Notes under the pieces: generated by a model | What the model was told of the DNA's origin: nothing | What the model saw: only the letters and a program-made list of their open reading frames with translations | Databases searched by the model: none | Part shown: positions 1 through 23,646 of the stretch, piece by piece | Numbering within the stretch: the stretch's first letter is position 1 | Layout: each line of letters starts with the position of its first letter | IMG/VR virus record: IMGVR_UViG_2651869696_000004 | Length of the DNA: 23,729 nucleotides | Origin: a virus | Lineage: Duplodnaviria; Heunggongvirae; Uroviricota; Caudoviricetes | Reading direction: 5' to 3' (one strand) | Made by a program: the position numbers and the translations under genes

Positions 1-102
1 TGCCCGTTGACGGACTTCGGGGGAAAAACGAGTATTTTTAGTCATCCTGTTTACCTCTTTCTCAGGAAGTTTAGTCTCCAGGATTCCCGGGGCGGTTCAT
101 AA
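1..102 (+). CDS. 3' end of an ORF entering from the left edge (frame 1, stop TAA 100-102); possible upstream partner of the DUF1524 gene
   Basis: Open frame from window edge to TAA at 100-102, 4 nt before the TTG at 107; no recognisable motif in the 33 visible codons. Confidence 0.3.
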   Translation, partial: CPLTDFGGKTSIFSHPVYLFLRKFSLQDSRGGS

Positions 103-106
103 AGAA

Positions 107-946
107 TTGGTTGATGGTTTTGGCACAACCCCCATCTCACACTTTGGATATCGCATCGCAGACTATGATGTGACGACACTTTATCCGCTTGCTTTGTTCA
201 TTTCGATAGCTAACATCGCTGATGATGAGAAAGCAGCCATGTATAATGATCTTGTCTCCTACGTAGTACGAAGAGCCGTATGTGGCCTGACGCCAAAGAA
301 TTACAACAATGTATTTATGAATGTATTGCGGCACTTGGCTAAAACGGAAATTTCCAGTGTTGAGTTACGTAATATCCTCAATAACTTAAATGGCGAAGCC
401 TCACGTTGGCCTGGTGACTCAGAATTTCTCAACGCTTGCATCAATGCTCCACTTTATCCTGGCAGGCTCGACGCACCGAAAATGCGCTCAATGTTAACGG
501 AACTTGAAAGAGAACTTTGTCGCCAAGTGAAGACCGAAAAGCCTGATGTTCCAAATCTTTCTAATCTCGATATCGATCATCTTATGCCCCAAAGTTGGTA
601 TTCCTGTTGGCCTCTCGAAAATGGTCGTATGGTGACAAATTCAGATGCTACGGTATTGAACCAAATTGTTCTGTCTGGAACCGATCTTACCCCTGAACAG
701 CTACTGGTAAGGAAACGGCAACAAGCGATAGCTACTTTGGGAAATCTAACTTTGCTTAACCTTAGCGTAAACCGTTCTGTTCAGAATGCTGTATTTCTGA
801 AAAAACGTGATGCTCTCATCGTCCACACCAATCTACGACTGAACATTCCACTTATAGTTAAGGATAAATGGGATGAGGATGAAATCCTGGAGCGGGGTAA
901 AAATTTGGGGGAAATTGCATTGAAAGTATGGCCAAAACACGATTAA
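107..946 (+). CDS. DUF1524/GmrD-like His-Me finger (HNH-type) nuclease domain protein; start codon uncertain (TTG at 107 or ATG at 239)
   Basis: Motifs DIDHLMPQS and GNLTLLNLSVNRSVQNAVFLKKRD match the DUF1524 signature found at the C-terminus of GmrSD-type enzymes; in-frame stop at 8-10 excludes a longer N-terminus in this frame; appears lower in GC than the phage genes by eye. Confidence 0.7.
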   Translation: MVDGFGTTPISHFGYRIADYDVTTLYPLALFISIANIADDEKAAMYNDLVSYVVRRAVCGLTPKNYNNVFMNVLRHLAKTEISSVELRNILNNLNGEASRWPGDSEFLNACINAPLYPGRLDAPKMRSMLTELERELCRQVKTEKPDVPNLSNLDIDHLMPQSWYSCWPLENGRMVTNSDATVLNQIVLSGTDLTPEQLLVRKRQQAIATLGNLTLLNLSVNRSVQNAVFLKKRDALIVHTNLRLNIPLIVKDKWDEDEILERGKNLGEIALKVWPKHD

Positions 947-967
947 TGCAATTAATAAAATGATTAT

Positions 968-993
968 AGCGGCCTTACCTTAGTAAGGCCGCT
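968..993 (+). terminator. Stem-loop (10-bp stem agcggcctta / taaggccgct, 6-nt loop) 22 nt after the DUF1524 gene stop; possible bidirectional terminator
   Basis: Perfect inverted repeat read directly; flanked by A/T-rich sequence on both sides but no clean U-tract on the plus strand. Confidence 0.45.
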
Positions 994-1041
994 ACTCACT
1001 ATTAAATACTTTAATTTGCATCAAGAACAGCAATGTCAGCC

Positions 1042-1170
1042 CTAGGTCTCGGACTTTGTACCGCTTATCTTGTTTTCAAAAATCAGCTCGCATCCTGCAC
1101 AGTTCAGCGCATTACGTTGTAGATCTGTGTTCTGGTCATTTGTTGATACGCGTACATAGCCAATAAGCAT
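1042..1170 (-). pseudogene. Serine DNA invertase (Gin/Pin/Hin/Cin family) N-terminal remnant, 43 codons then TAG
   Basis: Minus-strand translation from ATG at 1170 gives MLIGYVRVSTNDQNTDLQRNALNCAGCELIFENKISGTKSET*, which matches the conserved invertase N-terminus including the catalytic Ser in YVRVST; similarity ends about codon 40 and no downstream invertase sequence is present. Confidence 0.85.
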
Positions 1171-1224
1171 GGTAGATCCCCCTGACAAAAGCAGGAATGA
1201 TGCCATTTGCTCGTTATTTCTGCA

Positions 1225-1250
1225 TTTTCATAAACGTTGGTTTGGGAGAA
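1225..1250. repeat. Left crossover site of invertible segment (TTTTCATAAACG-TT-GGTTTGGGAGAA)
   Basis: 26-bp site with two 12-bp half-sites around a 2-bp core; inverted relative to 3145-3170 with a 14-bp perfect match; resembles gix/hix/pix architecture. Confidence 0.7.
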
Positions 1251-1747
1251 GGCTCTGCATTACCTGCGGTGTGCCTGTTCCGTGGCCTTCCGCCACTCCG
1301 CCGACAGGCTGGCTGAAATGCAATGGTGCGGCTTTTTCTGCTGAAGAATACCCGGAACTGGCAAAGGCTTACCCGACAAATAAATTGCCTGATTTACGCG
1401 GTGAATTTATTCGTGGCTGGGATGATGGGCGTAGTGCGGATGCGGGGAGAACAATATTATCCGCTCAGGGCGATGCCATACGTAATATCTATGGTGAGTT
1501 CAAGACTGTAAACACCGAAAATTATTCAATATGGGAATCAGTAGGCTCGTTTAAGGGGGCAGTGGTGCCTTTGAACCCCTCAACGAACAATAGTTATTTC
1601 TCCTTAGTCAGAAGTATGGTGACAGAAAGGTCCGAGGGCGGTGTTTACCCAAAAGTGATTGGCCTTGATGCTTCAAGAATTGTTCCAACTGCAAACGAAA
1701 ATCGACCCCGTAACATTGCCTTTAATTATATCGTGAGGGCTGCCTGA
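1251..1747 (+). CDS. Alternative tail-fibre C-terminal cassette (Sv'-like) with tail-collar domain; no start codon of its own; out of frame with the crossover site as it stands
   Basis: PVPWPSATPPTGWLKCNGAAFSAEEYPELAKAY...LPDLRGEFIRGWDDGR is a phage tail-collar-type motif; the track ORF 1169-1747 reads through the invertase start and the crossover site, so its first 27 codons are not genuine. Confidence 0.7.
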
Positions 1748-2349
1748 TGGATAAAGCTATATTAAATAAGGAACTCATCGCCACAAAGGCGGGAGATATT
1801 ACCGTTTATAATTATGATGGTGAAACACGAGAATATATTTCCACATCAACCGAATATCTTGCTGTGGGTGTCGGTATCCCGGCATGTTCCTGTTTAGATG
1901 CTCCTGGCTCATATAAAGCTGGTTATGCAATTTGCCGTTCTGCAGATTTTAACTCATGGGAATATGTGCCAGACCATCGCGGTGAAATCGTCTATAGCAC
2001 CGAAACAGGAGAATCAAAAGAAATCACAGCTCCGGGTGATTACCCTGAAAAGACAACCACTATCGCCCCGTTAACGCCATACGATAAATGGGATGGTGAG
2101 AAATGGGTGACGGATACCGAGGCACAGCATAGAGCAGCAGTAGACATGGCAGAAACACAGCGGCAGTCGCTGATTGATGCTGCAATGGTTTCCATTAGTC
2201 TGATTCAACTGAAATTGCAGGCCGGGAGGAAGCTGACGCAGGCAGAAAACACCCGACTTAACGCCGTGCTGGATTACACTGACGCGGTGACGGCAACAGA
2301 TACCAGCACCGCGCCGGATGTCATCTGGCCTGAACTGCCGGAGGCGTAG
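1747..2349 (+). CDS. Tail fibre assembly protein (Tfa), partner of the alternative fibre cassette
   Basis: 200 aa; start overlaps the cassette stop (TGATG); C-terminus DYTDAVTATDTSTAPDVIWPELPEA is similar to the C-terminus of the convergent Tfa. Confidence 0.8.
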   Translation: MDKAILNKELIATKAGDITVYNYDGETREYISTSTEYLAVGVGIPACSCLDAPGSYKAGYAICRSADFNSWEYVPDHRGEIVYSTETGESKEITAPGDYPEKTTTIAPLTPYDKWDGEKWVTDTEAQHRAAVDMAETQRQSLIDAAMVSISLIQLKLQAGRKLTQAENTRLNAVLDYTDAVTATDTSTAPDVIWPELPEA

Positions 2350-2773
2350 GCCATTCAATATCTGGAGCACTGGAGGTATCAACCAGCTCCAGTGCGTCCA
2401 GATAATCCAGCCACAAATTATATTGCGCCAGTTCGTCACCTTTCAGACGACCAATAGCGGCTTTACCAGGCCATTGTTTACTGTTCATATAATCGTTGGC
2501 CTGATTAATTAGTAGCTGTCTTTCTGATTCAGTAATTTCAGTAAGTTCTTCATGCGTAGGGGCAGGAATATCCGCCCACGCGGGCAGCCCATCACCTCCG
2601 GCAATACGGATTTTTCCTTGTGGCGGTTCAGCCATAAATTCACTGATAATATTTTGACTCACCTCCTTAGCATCTGATAAATCCCATCCCTCTGATTTAT
2701 ATTTATCAATCATATCCACAGGGAAAAAAGCATTATGCCTTGCGCTATAAACATATTCGTTCATATAAATCAT
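2321..2773 (-). CDS. Tail fibre assembly protein (Tfa) for the currently expressed fibre
   Basis: 150 aa immediately downstream of the fibre gene; conserved Tfa C-terminal region LWLDYLDALELVDTSSAPDIEWP; 3' ends of the two tfa genes overlap convergently at 2321-2349. Confidence 0.8.
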   Translation of the reverse strand: MIYMNEYVYSARHNAFFPVDMIDKYKSEGWDLSDAKEVSQNIISEFMAEPPQGKIRIAGGDGLPAWADIPAPTHEELTEITESERQLLINQANDYMNSKQWPGKAAIGRLKGDELAQYNLWLDYLDALELVDTSSAPDIEWPTPPAVQAR

Positions 2774-2784
2774 CCTGAATAAAA

Positions 2785-3447
2785 TTATTCACCAACAGCC
2801 CACCAACTGTAAGTCATTGACACCTTGTCGCTGGTTGATGCAGTTCTGTAAGCAGAATTAAAGCCGGTTAATGTTGGGCCTTCTACGGACATAACGAATC
2901 CACGCCCTGCACCAAAAGGCGCACCGCCATCGCCAGAATGGGTAAGAATGGCGATATCCGCTTTTTTAGGGAAAGGGATAGGAAATGTAATCCTCATTGT
3001 TTGCGTCGATAATTTCGGCATAGCCTCACCTCGACCATATTGCAGGATTTTCCCGTTGGGTAATTTCATCCATCCATCACCACTGGCAAAAGAGGTCATG
3101 TCCGGTATCTGATTTTCCCCTGTCCCCACCCCTCGTTTTGCTGCTTCTCCCAAACCAAGGTTTTCGAGAGCCGTTTTCACCGTGCCATCCGATTTGATAT
3201 CACCAAACGGATTCTTGCGGCTTAACAGCAGAGCACGAAGCGCGGTAAGCAACTGGTCGTTTCGCCCCTTCTCCAGGCTGGCACCGGATGCCTCCACCAC
3301 GCTGCAAAGCTCCTCCTGCAACATATCAAAGTAGTCATCATCCAGATCGGTGGCAGGTGTGCCGGTCTGGGGGTTACCACGGGTAAAACCGTTCTTACCC
3401 GCGCCGAACTTATCCTTCTGCGCGGTTTTCGTGTCTATACGATGCAT
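2785..3447 (-). CDS. Tail fibre protein (StfP-like); constant N-terminal part outside and variable C-terminal part inside the invertible segment
   Basis: 220 aa directly downstream of the gp48-like gene; crossover site 3145-3170 falls at codons 93-101 ([12 protein letters not shown]). Confidence 0.8.
3145..3170. repeat. Right crossover site of invertible segment (TTCTCCCAAACC-AA-GGTTTTCGAGAG)
   Basis: Inverted copy of the 1225-1250 site; core dinucleotides are identical when the sites are aligned in the same orientation. Confidence 0.7.
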
Positions 3448-4035: not shown

Positions 4036-5084
4036 GAAATCGCCCCCAGAACCGCCAGCTCATTTTTCGCAATGGTGATATTGTCCGCCGGTGCAAGCAA
4101 CTGATGGCTGTATTCCCCGTTCGCACCGGAAATCGCTTCACTGATACGTGACACCTTCAGTTCTCCCTGCGGATAACCATCACGCAGCAGGAACGAACGC
4201 AACTCCGCGGTGATGGCAGCCCGTATTTCCGGTGTGTCCGGCGTCACACGGATATGAAAATCCACCGTATGTGCCACCGGCCTGAACACATACAAATCAG
4301 AGCCTGCCACCGGGGCCAGTGGCCCGATATGTTGTCTTGCCGCCGTTTCCGTTGATTCTTCCGGAATGGGATTAATCAGGTCACTGCTGGCAATCATCAC
4401 ACCGACAGTCCCCGTTCCCATCCAGTGTCGGTATGTCCATGCGCGGGTAATGCCAGGCACTTCTTTAGCCCAGACGACATAGTCCCCGTCAGCCCCGCCC
4501 TGCGGCGTCCAGTAATACCGCTCAATGACGCGGGCGCGCCACGTTTCCAGCTCTTCAGTATCAAATCCGCCTGTCAGGGTGTCAGCCACACCGGAAGACG
4601 GCAGACCATTCACCGGCGTGACCAGGATTAATGCCGTACCGTCGTCAGCGTTACCGACCGCACCTGCACTTGAGCAGGCGATCGGCACGCGCAGGACACC
4701 ACCGGAGCTGATTGCATCGTCAGTTGTCGTGTACTGCACCAGGTCATCGCGCTGAATAACACTCCCGGCAGTCACCTTCAGGCCATCGCTGACACCTTCC
4801 CAGCGCATATACCCGCTGGCAACCGTGGCACCCTTGCGCGGACACCGTTTCATCGCAGCATGTCGCGCCAGCCAGGACTCATCGCACAGGTCAGGCAGCA
4901 TATTCATTGCCAGATAATCGATGTAACCGTAGACCGTATGCAGCGCCGCCGCATACACCTTTGCCCGCACGTCTTCATCCATGCGCCGGAGCGTGTCGCT
5001 GACGTCCAGCCTGGCGAATAAATCGTTACGGAGCATACTGATATTTTCTGCCAGCGTCGGGCGCTGAAATTCACTGTCCGCCAT
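4026..5084 (-). CDS. Baseplate J-like protein (Mu gp47-like)
   Basis: 352 aa; conserved position and length in Mu-like baseplate module. Confidence 0.8.
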
Positions 5085-7123: not shown

Positions 7124-8448
7124 TGCACTGGCACCTTCAGAGGGATCACCGGCACAAAGCCGGGATGCGTAATGGCATTACGCCGGATAATGTCCGCGTC
7201 ACGCGCCGCGTTATCAAACCAGGTCGCCGCCAGCACCAGCGCGGGTAAAACCTCATCCGGTGTGCGCTGAATGATCCGTGCAGACTGTTCAAGGCGCGTG
7301 TTGATATCCGCATTCAGATCTGCTTTCACCCGGCGCAGCGCCAGAAACAGCGCATCACTGGTTGTACGGGACAACTCCTTATCAATTGCCGTATTCAGTG
7401 TGTCGCGAATGTCAGTCAGTTCTTCCCACGTCGGCAGGTCAACCGTGTTTTTCACCGCCGGTGCATTGTTCAGTGCCGGATGCGTGACGGAAGGCCAGCC
7501 AGTGCTCTGCGCAGGTGTTGTTGCCTGCTCCACTGCGGCATTCTGCATCACCGCGGAAGTTGTTGGCGCAGGCAATCGGGTGACGGCATACGCCGCTTCG
7601 CTGATTGCGGTCGTACGAAGGGTGCTGGCAACCACGTTACGCTGCTGCGTCGCCGTGGCGGTGGTTTTACTGTCCGTTTTCCAGACGCCGCGCGGTTGCA
7701 GATCGCTGCCGAGGCTGACACCGGAAAGCGTTTTGATCATGGTGACCAGGTCGCTGGCGTTACCATAAAGGCGTTTCCCGGTACGCCACATTTTCTGCAC
7801 CTGCTCAACGAAATTTTTGCCTGACGATGGCGGCGGCAGAAGTACCGAGATATCCCCCTGCAACAGCCTGGCGGCATCCGATACGGCAGAATCCACCACT
7901 TTCATCGCATCAGAAACATACCCAAGCATTGTGCTGGCATTACCGACGACGTCGTTCTGCACAAAATCTGCCACGCCATCGATACTGAAACCACTGAAAC
8001 TGTCACTGATGCAGTCATCCAGTGCAGAACAGGATGACATCAGCGTCTGCGCCGTCGCCGCACCTGATGTGGGGTAAGAGAGTTCTCCCGCTTCGACAAA
8101 CTTCAGGTCAAAGCGGACAATACGCCCTTCACTCTTCGATGTGCTGACCCGAACCTCCCCGTCAACACAGACTTTCAGCTCACCGTATGTCGGATGGACA
8201 AGCGTGCCGGGACCGGGTTTATTCAGCGCGTCAATCAGGCGATCGCGCTGGTCAAAGCAGTCATCTCCCACCACATAAGCCGTGATGGACGGGCGGAAAG
8301 TGATTTTCCCCAGGTCTTCGGCATAGGGTTTGTCGCGGTTCGGGTATTCGTGCGTTTCCACACGACGACCGGTTCCCGCACTTTCTTCTTCAACCTTAAA
8401 CGGCACACCGCGAAATGACGCGTCCTGAAGTCTGTCTTTCCACGTCAT
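7120..8448 (-). CDS. DNA circulation protein (Mu N / gp43-like); start moved to ATG at 8448
   Basis: N-terminal MTWKDRLQDASFRGVPF is characteristic of the Mu N family; GGAG Shine-Dalgarno 5-8 nt upstream of ATG 8448; the track start at 8490 lacks this. Confidence 0.75.
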   Translation of the reverse strand: MTWKDRLQDASFRGVPFKVEEESAGTGRRVETHEYPNRDKPYAEDLGKITFRPSITAYVVGDDCFDQRDRLIDALNKPGPGTLVHPTYGELKVCVDGEVRVSTSKSEGRIVRFDLKFVEAGELSYPTSGAATAQTLMSSCSALDDCISDSFSGFSIDGVADFVQNDVVGNASTMLGYVSDAMKVVDSAVSDAARLLQGDISVLLPPPSSGKNFVEQVQKMWRTGKRLYGNASDLVTMIKTLSGVSLGSDLQPRGVWKTDSKTTATATQQRNVVASTLRTTAISEAAYAVTRLPAPTTSAVMQNAAVEQATTPAQSTGWPSVTHPALNNAPAVKNTVDLPTWEELTDIRDTLNTAIDKELSRTTSDALFLALRRVKADLNADINTRLEQSARIIQRTPDEVLPALVLAATWFDNAARDADIIRRNAITHPGFVPVIPLKVPVQ

Positions 8449-20422: not shown

Positions 20423-20773
20423 TTACTTCAGCCGTTCACGGGCCGTCTTCGCCTTATGACACAGCCAGCACAGACTCTGCAGATTACTGTCGGCATCAGA
20501 GCCGCCATGCGCTTTAGGAATGATGTGGTCAACGGTTTTCGCCTCACGCACCACACCAGCACGCAGACATAACTGACATAAACCTTTATCACGCTTCAGC
20601 ACACGCGCGCGGATAACATCCCACTTCGAACCATAGCCGCGCTGGTGACGGGATTGTCCTGGCTTGTATTGTTTCCAGCCTTCGCTTTTGTGGCTTTCGC
20701 AGTAGCCTGACGGGTCAGTCGTGGTATTGCGGCAGCCGCGAACGCGGCAGGCTTTTGGGATTCTAGGGGGCAT
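20423..20773 (-). CDS. HNH endonuclease (terminase-associated)
   Basis: 116 aa; CxxC...DHIIPKAHGG...N...LCWLCH zinc-finger HNH motif; immediately upstream of terminase genes; no obvious Shine-Dalgarno. Confidence 0.9.
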   Translation of the reverse strand: MPPRIPKACRVRGCRNTTTDPSGYCESHKSEGWKQYKPGQSRHQRGYGSKWDVIRARVLKRDKGLCQLCLRAGVVREAKTVDHIIPKAHGGSDADSNLQSLCWLCHKAKTARERLK

Positions 20774-22887: not shown

Positions 22888-23646
22888 TTATTTCCCCACC
22901 AGTTCACTTACCTCTTTCACTGTCTGGTTAAACCGATCTGACTCAAGCTCAACACCTAACGCCCGACGCCCCAGCTCCATTGCTGCTTTTATTGTGGAAC
23001 CAGATCCCATAAAAAAATCAGCAACCAGATCACCTGGTCGACTACTGGCATTGATTATTTGCCGGAGCATATCCGCCGGTTTCTCACACGGATGTTTACC
23101 CGGGTAGAACTGAACGGGTTTATGCGTCCAGACATCGGTATAAGGCACGGAGACTGATACGGAGAAATAGCGCCGGAGAGATTTAAACTCATCCAGCAAT
23201 TCAGAATATTTGCGATTCAGTGAATCATAAGATGCCACCAGCTGGTGGTGTGTCTGTTCCAGTTGTTGTTCCTGAAACTTCTCTGCCGCTATACGGGAAA
23301 ACAGTGCCTGCAACTTCCGGTAGTCAGCCTCATTCGGCAACTGCCACTGACTGGCACCAAACCAGTGGGAAACCATGTTTTTCTTACCAGTGGCTTCGGC
23401 AATCTGTTTTGCCGTTATACCCAGTTCGGCACGTGCATCCCTGAAATACGATATCAGCGGTGCCATTATGTGCTGTTTGAGTTCCCTTTCTTTTTCCGCA
23501 TAGCCGTCACTTTTGCCGCGATATGGCCCCTGGTAATGTTCAGCAAACAGAACGCGCTCTGTAGCGGGGAAATATGCCCGCAGGCTTTCTTTATTACACC
23601 CGTTCCATCGTCCGGACGGCTTCGCCCAGATGGGTAATGACTCCAA
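22888..23646 (-). CDS. DNA methyltransferase (N6-adenine/N4-cytosine, beta-class-like) lacking the N-terminal DPPY-type motif in this frame
   Basis: C-terminus HPCEKPADMLRQIINASSRPGDLVADFFMGSGST matches the HPTQKP...DPFAGSGTT AdoMet-binding region of YhdJ-type methylases; no DPPY-like motif upstream; TTG start. Confidence 0.7.
   Translation of the reverse strand: MESLPIWAKPSGRWNGCNKESLRAYFPATERVLFAEHYQGPYRGKSDGYAEKERELKQHIMAPLISYFRDARAELGITAKQIAEATGKKNMVSHWFGASQWQLPNEADYRKLQALFSRIAAEKFQEQQLEQTHHQLVASYDSLNRKYSELLDEFKSLRRYFSVSVSVPYTDVWTHKPVQFYPGKHPCEKPADMLRQIINASSRPGDLVADFFMGSGSTIKAAMELGRRALGVELESDRFNQTVKEVSELVGK

Follow-up and report, generated by a model that had tools for sequence, protein, structure and literature searches.

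A truncated pinE-type invertase gene beside a tail-fibre segment found in both orientations among e14-family prophages of Escherichia coli

Beside a pair of oppositely oriented tail-fibre cassettes in an E. coli prophage lies a DNA invertase gene cut down to its 5′ end, which raises the question of how this gene was broken and whether the neighbouring segment can still invert. The stub is very probably all that is left, as a dead 5′ end, of a pinE-type (Din-family) gene carried by an e14-family prophage, the rest having been replaced by a GmrSD-type restriction gene, with an adjoining P-like segment that can still be inverted in trans. In the mechanism proposed here, one old event would have replaced everything past about codon 50, together with the downstream sequence, by a convergent GmrSD gene and a hairpin, and a later 1-nt deletion would have produced a TAG at codon 43. 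The cis machinery would have survived as two 26-bp crossover sites and a segment of roughly 64 bp colinear with a Fis-bound enhancer, and the roughly 1.9-kb P-like segment would be invertible by a Pin-type recombinase supplied from elsewhere in the cell. Further decay would then have followed in the window, with an insertion sequence (IS) in the GmrSD gene and a frameshift in the silent fibre cassette.

The window, meaning the whole stretch of DNA analysed, is the complete 23,729-nt contig JHSV01000071.1 of the draft assembly GCA_001266155.1, taken in reverse orientation. By gene order and sequence similarity it is an e14-family prophage. The e14 element of K-12 has the order jayE, ymfQ, stfP, tfaP, tfaE, stfE, pinE and mcrA, and relatives of the window carry the PGAP names ymfQ, stfP, tfaE and pinE. 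The shared layout comprises baseplate J, YmfQ, Stf, Tfa, Tfa, Stf′, pin and a type IV restriction gene; the crossover repeat TTGGTTTGGGAGAAGG is identical to that of the e14 P-segment/PinE switch of K-12, the constant part of the fibre is near-identical, the silent cassette is StfE-like, and the stub matches pinE alleles at 117–121 of 123 nt. The two elements differ in four respects: pin is cut to 42 readable codons in the window whereas K-12 has a full pinE; the window element carries a convergently oriented GmrSD gene where e14 has mcrA; relatives of the window prophage lie at ssrA with a full late region whereas e14 lies at icd; and the variable domain of the expressed fibre is gp53-like, unlike that of K-12 StfP.

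Read from right to left, the late region contains genes for a DNA methylase, a holin, an HNH endonuclease, the small and large terminase subunits, the portal, the protease and the capsid, and continues with the sheath, the tube, the tape measure, a Mu-like baseplate (gp45, 46, 47 and 48) and the fibre gene; it is apparently intact. The HNH endonuclease gene (20423–20773, minus strand) adjoins the small terminase gene, the DNA methylase gene (22888–23646, minus strand) lies at the far end of the late region, and both look intact. In related complete genomes the prophage abuts ssrA, and its end is made up of AbiTii, a DinI-like pseudogene, a 629-aa DUF262/DUF1524 protein and the stub. The left end of the window contains the following features.

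1–98, minus strand: terminal part of an IS3-family element, including the beginning of its transposase ORF; the contig breaks off within this IS.
99–946, plus strand: the last 848 nt (3′ end) of a type IV restriction gene of the GmrSD type (DUF262 + DUF1524; Pfam GmrSD_C, E 8e-21).
966–995, no strand: perfect hairpin of 12–13 bp (inverted repeat I9) between the GmrSD gene and the stub.
1018–1041, minus strand: probable degenerate, out-of-frame remnant of invertase codons about 43–50, from in-register identity and blastn alignment starts, with the junction at its left end.
1042–1170, minus strand: invertase stub of 42 codons plus TAG, Ser9 included.

From the ATG at 1170 to the TAG at 1042–1044 the stub reads MLIGYVRVSTNDQNTDLQRNALNCAGCELIFENKISGTKSET, followed by the stop; the longest ORF over it starts at 1206 and has 54 aa. 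The Pfam Resolvase N-terminal domain matches the stub (E 4e-8, profile positions 2–47 of 145), as do residues 1–41 of the Gin structures 4m6f and 3uj3 (E 2e-18). Position 9 is Ser in the stub and in 4m6f, and Ala in the 3uj3 chain. The nucleophilic serine of Din-family invertases is Ser9 in Gin and Ser10 in Hin, and we take Ser9 of the stub to be the catalytic serine. At the nucleotide level, positions 1–123 of the stub ORF agree with the full-length pinE gene of E. coli CB9615 at 121/123, with the HB-Coli0 allele at 117/123 and with the gene of phage Cartapus at 105/123. These alignments to serine invertases confirm what had been read from the letters alone (the sequence-only reading hereafter), namely that the minus-strand frame from 1170 encodes the N-terminus of a Gin/Pin/Hin/Cin invertase with its catalytic serine. 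The stub is evidently a real feature and not a chance ORF. It is also an ordinary pseudogene, already flagged by RefSeq: in relatives PGAP labels it ‘recombinase family protein, incomplete, missing C-terminus’, beside the DUF262 protein.

A tblastn search with full PinE recovers residues 1–44 and nothing more in the 23.7-kb window and in eight related loci reaching ±10 kb. By Pfam and tblastn the complete catalytic domain (about 100 aa) and the oligomerisation helix E are absent, the ORF ending at residue 42, and by tblastn the C-terminal helix-turn-helix DNA-binding domain is found neither in the window nor in relatives out to ±10 kb. Of the three features that make a Din invertase an enzyme, the N-terminal beta1-alphaA region with its serine is present and two are missing. 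Since the product of 42 residues is without most of the catalytic domain, and has neither the oligomerisation helix nor the DNA-binding domain, no invertase can be made in cis, in agreement with the initial proposal that the tail-fibre switch has no drive of its own in this element. That proposal put the loss at about 75% of the gene; about 77% is gone, with 42 of roughly 183 codons readable and about 50 traceable. Displacement of the 3′ part to a nearby position, as opposed to its deletion, was considered and ruled out, with no trace of it by tblastn within ±10 kb.

Similarity at the protein level stops at residue 41–42. The sequence-only reading, in which similarity ended about codon 40 with a TAG following, therefore holds for the protein but not for the DNA, in which weak homology runs about 25 nt further. 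The 40 nt past the TAG match four full-length alleles in register at 18–23 of 40 positions (binomial p 5e-3 to 1e-5), compared with 7–10 of 40 in an out-of-register control, and the in-register signal fades at about ORF nt 150, near window position 1022 and about 25 nt beyond the TAG. This ungapped comparison, with four alleles and an out-of-register control, replaced, as the appropriate test, local alignment with gaps of the sequence past the stop to pinE, which in comparison with shuffled sequence gave p 0.03 for one allele and no significance for another. Megablast and blastn alignments to some invertase alleles, including distant phage ones, begin at window position 1025 or 1036 and not at 1049. 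The replacement junction probably lies near 1018–1024. The further claim that no invertase sequence exists to the left of the stub fails for the degenerate remnant at 1018–1041 and stands beyond it, where tblastn finds nothing in the window or, in relatives, out to ±10 kb. The break does fall, as proposed, beside the 3′ end of the DUF1524 gene and its hairpin, with the stop of the gene at 946, the hairpin at 966–995 and the junction near 1022.

Compared with a ‘+1’ allele, which reads on to 60 codons, the window has lost 1 nt, and it is this deletion that creates the TAG. Strain ET201 (locus L002, about 4891–5073) has this ‘+1’ allele, with the frame SESLGLTLLFL... where PinE has SERPGLKKLLRTL. 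The junction-bearing IMG/VR contigs (L019–L049) are almost evenly divided, with the 60-codon allele in 16/31 and the 42-codon allele in 15/31; each of the two alleles is joined to several fibre cassette classes. Identity to pinE is about 98% over ORF nt 1–123 and drops abruptly to ~55% over the next 40 nt. Taken as a whole the sequence-only reading is supported, and the corrections to the junction and to the stop codon, which is a secondary frameshift, are minor.

A query spanning window positions 940–1260 (GmrSD 3′ end, hairpin, junction, stub and crossover site) is present at a coverage of at least 80% in 289 of 5,426 complete E. coli genomes, and loci with a full-length pinE align only rightwards from window position 1049 or 1036. 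The GmrSD-stub junction is also present on 31 IMG/VR contigs. It is found in none of 50,697 phage records (0/50,697); in the phage matches listed, similarity is confined to the invertase-stub part of the query, and most of these are annotated as DNA invertase. There is no match to the junction in the GTDB species-representative genomes, a result that says nothing on its spread outside E. coli. As a single junction is common to all carriers, the comparison points to one ancestral event.

GmrSD enzymes are type IV restriction systems acting on glucosyl-hmC DNA. The GmrSD gene beside the stub is interrupted by an IS3-family insertion at nt 1043 of 1890; GmrSD homology begins only at window position 99, the C-terminal 279 aa remain downstream of the IS, and the fused DUF262 + DUF1524 protein is not intact here. 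Because of this insertion the restriction gene is dead in the window strain. Across E. coli, numerous IS3-family copies, as many as 50 in one genome, match the first 98 nt of the window at 100% identity. In relatives the intact 629-aa homologue contains both domains and matches PADLOC mREase_IV from end to end (1410 bits). The hairpin is terminator-like on the minus (stub) strand, on which the site at 995→966 is followed by AATCATTTTA. The neighbour gene belongs to the same family as the GmrSD of E. coli CT596 and UTI89, from which the window copy differs in its disruption by the IS. The same stub junction is present in UTI89, which is among the strains used to study GmrSD; in the GmrSD literature no description was found of the invertase as a stub or of continued inversion of the adjoining segment.

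The slot downstream of pin is variably occupied in e14-like prophages. It contains mcrA in K-12 (L052, 7347–8180), a PD-T4-3 GIY-YIG gene adjoining an intact pinE in HB-Coli0 (L005, 2248–3021), and AbiTii together with GmrSD/mREase_IV in the element represented by the window (L001, 1145–2065 and 2959–4848); the slot is a defence-gene hotspot. UTI89 has both the GIY-YIG gene (L018, 1626–2399) and GmrSD. In a yfhH prophage of O111:H11 strain 8D pinE has been truncated a second time, independently, and retains 89 codons (L010, 2356–2622); the yfhH prophage of O55:H7 CB9615 (L004, 3074–3622) has a full pinE with a different downstream cargo gene. Cargo replacement at the hotspot probably removed the 3′ end of the invertase gene. 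On the phage-plasmid p13P477T-2 (L051, 1089–1647) a related invertase gene is annotated as frameshifted, in two pieces, beside an invertible fibre segment.

To the right of the stub start lies the fibre segment itself, with its crossover sites and the candidate enhancer.

About 1086–1149, no strand: candidate recombinational (Fis) enhancer of roughly 64 bp, from colinearity with the hin enhancer and a consensus scan.
1197–1316, plus strand: StfE-like ORF across the crossover site with its start outside the segment; it stops after 39 aa by frameshift.
1225–1250, no strand: left 26-bp crossover site, pix-type, TTTTCATAAACG TT GGTTTGGGAGAA (inverted repeat I1).
1252–1747, plus strand: silent variable fibre cassette with an StfE-like tail collar (Pfam Collar, E 1e-15), homologous to K-12 StfE.
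1747–2349, plus strand: tfaE-like tail-fibre assembly gene for the silent cassette (Pfam Caudo_TAP, E 7e-31).
2321–2773, minus strand: tail-fibre assembly gene for the expressed cassette (Pfam Caudo_TAP, E 4e-30).
2785–3447, minus strand: expressed tail-fibre gene, with an StfP-like constant N-terminal part of 101 aa followed by a gp53-like variable C-terminus (Pfam Gp53-like_C).
3145–3170, no strand: right 26-bp crossover site, inside the fibre gene, TTCTCCCAAACC AA GGTTTTCGAGAG (inverted repeat I1).

Both crossover sites are intact, with repeat arms that are 95% complementary around a central TT/AA, and the left site contains the published e14 P-segment repeat TTGGTTTGGGAGAAGG (PMC12529663). 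The alternative cassettes are oppositely oriented and have an assembly gene each, with collar plus tfa on the plus strand and gp53-like domain plus tfa on the minus strand. Over residues 1–101 the expressed fibre has two differences from K-12 StfP; the exact protein is encoded on 21 contigs. Among the IMG/VR contigs the crossover site on the stub side adjoins cassettes of at least four classes. An IS3-family element is located between the two tfa genes inside the invertible segment of c1-17 (L008, 6343–7571), and isolate 23 (L003) has lost most of the element beyond the segment and retains the gp53-like cassette beside the stub.

The silent cassette of the window has a lesion of its own. Relative to its nearest relatives (L012–L016; ORFs 1197–1316 and 1169–1747) one T is missing between 1266 and 1267, and the crossover site and the silent collar cassette are consequently in different frames. 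The same lesion is present in a second assembly, GCA_040813075.1 (L011), and it is therefore not a read error; that locus also contains an IS1 in baseplate J (7684–8381). A flip in the window would cut the phage fibre to 122 aa, yet would create an intact 137-aa StfE2-like ORF. The frameshift in the silent cassette suggests that the switch has been idle in the lineage of the window.

The candidate enhancer lies within the stub. The hin enhancer is 65 bp long with a Fis site at either end and is located about 100 bp from hixL (PMC2724282; PMC3798978), and in hin and gin the Fis-bound enhancer is within the first ~100 nt of the invertase gene. In the window two G-N13-C 15-mers (1135–1149 and 1086–1100), which fit a loose consensus, are situated 49 bp apart within 1086–1149, the nearer one 95.5 bp from the crossover centre, and the whole of this segment falls in the 123 nt of the ORF that are nearly identical to intact pinE (121/123). 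The locus resembles the Gin system of the Mu G segment, the Cin system of the P1 C segment and the Hin system of the Salmonella H segment in the homology of the stub to Gin residues 1–41 (E 2e-18), in its 26-bp sites with a common central dinucleotide, and in an enhancer-equivalent segment that lies within the 5′ part of the coding region, at a distance of about 95 bp from the site (PMC3798978, PMC2724282); it differs from them in having a remnant only, and no functional recombinase, in cis. By colinearity and the loose consensus match, positions 1086–1149 are a candidate Fis enhancer.

It is conceivable, and on balance rather doubtful, that the stub has been retained as an enhancer, with the host keeping an invertase-less yet flippable P-like segment within an anti-T-even defence island, and Pin-type inversion toggling an StfE2-like surface blocker. 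In e14, StfE2 is a surface-blocking protein against T2, and inversion of the P segment blocks T2 adsorption. Compatible with such retention is the fall in pinE identity from 98% to ~55% right past the enhancer-bearing part, shortly after the segment colinear with the Fis enhancer; possible causes of this drop are enhancer constraint, gene conversion from intact pinE copies that stopped before the junction, or an ancestral mosaic. In a K-12 pinE deletion mutant the P segment is locked despite a chromosomal pinQ (PMC12529663). This is compatible with enhancer retention on the assumption that the deletion took the whole ORF and hence the enhancer, and it is equally explained if PinE is the main basal invertase. 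Strains 730V1 and WL7562 were considered as enhancer-less controls for locking and set aside, being single IS26- and IS66-mediated disruptions unsuitable for population counts. Were the stub retained in this way, GmrSD would restrict glucosyl-hmC DNA, and any resident Pin-type recombinase would toggle the StfE2-like protein.

Whether the segment has moved since the invertase was truncated was addressed in other strains with a query consisting of a synthetic inverted junction, built as inversion of the segment would create it. The sequence-only reading had proposed a check for both orientations, and both are present among other strains with the same element. Six genomes contain the synthetic inverted junction for window-type cassettes over its full length (100% coverage). 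Between ES7 and ES8, which come from the same frog-farm sediment source, a 1,858-bp segment is the exact reverse complement, with breakpoints within the 20-bp repeats; the left flanks are identical over 5,452 nt (100%) and the right flanks have one mismatch in 3,363 nt (99.97%). A like difference in orientation separates c1-17 from WP2-S18. Within the UTI89 clade, 79 genomes have the UTI89-type junction and 24 (IHE3034, APEC O1 and PMV-1 included) have the synthetic inverted one, and among the matches listed these junctions are 100% identical over 700 nt and all are accompanied by the stub and the DUF262 gene. The locus therefore has paired sites, opposed cassettes and, in other strains, both orientations, while the cis invertase is missing. 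In the flipped strain ES8 (NZ_CM184330.1) the prophage is located ~54 kb further along the chromosome than in ES7 (NZ_CM184333.1), which suggests an extra element upstream.

These comparisons also bear on the possibility that the switch is locked and that the two orientations arose by homologous exchange of whole tail-fibre modules with other prophages. The cassettes are indeed highly mosaic, with the four or more classes at the stub-side site noted above, and many stub-bearing chromosomes have no detectable second invertase. However, import of modules in the opposite orientation would not yield clean, repeated and sequence-identical flips of the kind seen in the exact reverse complement of ES7 and ES8, bounded by 20-bp repeats and by flanks of 99.97–100% identity, or in the two fully identical junction types of the UTI89 clade (79 versus 24 genomes, identity among the matches listed), and a locked switch is accordingly unlikely. 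The preferred reading is that of a segment still invertible in trans, which in relatives has inverted cleanly, and more than once, after truncation of the invertase gene. Inversion after truncation implies a recombinase encoded elsewhere.

A Pin-type invertase acting in trans is the probable driver of the switch. The e14 P segment is inverted not only by PinE but also by PinQ and PinR, which belong to other prophages; the Salmonella H segment is a substrate of Fin, and the G and H segments are substrates of PinE (PMC12529663). Chimeric queries were used in which the count of places per record reveals a second invertase; they cover chromosomes only and miss plasmid-borne and divergent genes, and within this scope a second Din-type 3′ region is present in roughly 25 of the best 60 stub-bearing chromosomes. 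A chimeric pinQ query locates a pinQ-type gene on some other stub-bearing chromosomes. The distribution in individual strains is as follows.

ES8: Din-type yes, pinQ-type yes.
ES7: Din-type no, pinQ-type yes.
c1-17: Din-type no, pinQ-type yes.
UTI89: Din-type yes, pinQ-type no.
IHE3034: Din-type yes, pinQ-type no.
WP2-S18: Din-type no, pinQ-type no.
PMV-1: Din-type no, pinQ-type no.
ATCC 11775: Din-type no, pinQ-type no.

The second chromosomal Din-type copy of ES8 is a pinE-like 3′ region. On many stub-bearing chromosomes, those of WP2-S18, PMV-1 and ATCC 11775 among them, blastn finds neither a second Din-type nor a pinQ-type gene. In strains without a second chromosomal gene the recombinase could be plasmid-borne or too divergent, or the orientation could have been inherited from an ancestor.

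A function for the stub product itself is much less probable. A peptide of 42 aa (or 60 aa) could serve, for example, as an inhibitor of co-resident Pin-type invertases, and the stub ORF does keep its start codon and a GGGGGA Shine-Dalgarno-like motif, with its first 123 nt 95–98% identical to pinE alleles. Such a peptide, of which only residues 1–41 align with Gin, would nevertheless have little of the catalytic domain and nothing of the dimerisation helix E or the DNA-binding domain, and the occurrence at similar frequency of two alleles with different C-termini and lengths argues against constraint on it. The least probable alternative, that the stub is a sequencing or assembly artefact or that a simple frameshift interrupts an invertase gene which is otherwise complete, could appeal to the draft status of the contig and to the origin of the TAG in a 1-nt indel relative to the other allele, but it is refuted by the junction in 289 complete genomes and 31 viral contigs and by the lack of downstream invertase sequence in all frames, both in the window and in relatives out to ±10 kb. 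The stub is thus best read as the dead 5′ end of a pinE-type gene beside a segment that other recombinases may still invert.

What is new here is that an orphan switch flips in natural populations, which extends the known trans-complementation among Pin-type systems and does not constitute a new kind of system; its interest is moderate and lies in the orphan switch rather than in the stub. Gene replacement after pin, by mcrA, PD-T4-3 or GmrSD, can erode the 3′ end of the invertase gene, and appears to have done so at least twice independently. For annotation, it is unsafe to label a switch ‘locked’ or ‘dead’ from a pseudogene invertase alone. Given that P-segment inversion in e14 blocks adsorption of T2, the stub-bearing strains could offer a natural test of the need for the stub, with its candidate enhancer, in inversion in trans. 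A switch can outlive its own recombinase while its sites and the 5′ piece with the candidate enhancer survive, and phase variation of the tail fibre would then hinge on whichever Pin-type recombinases the cell carries.
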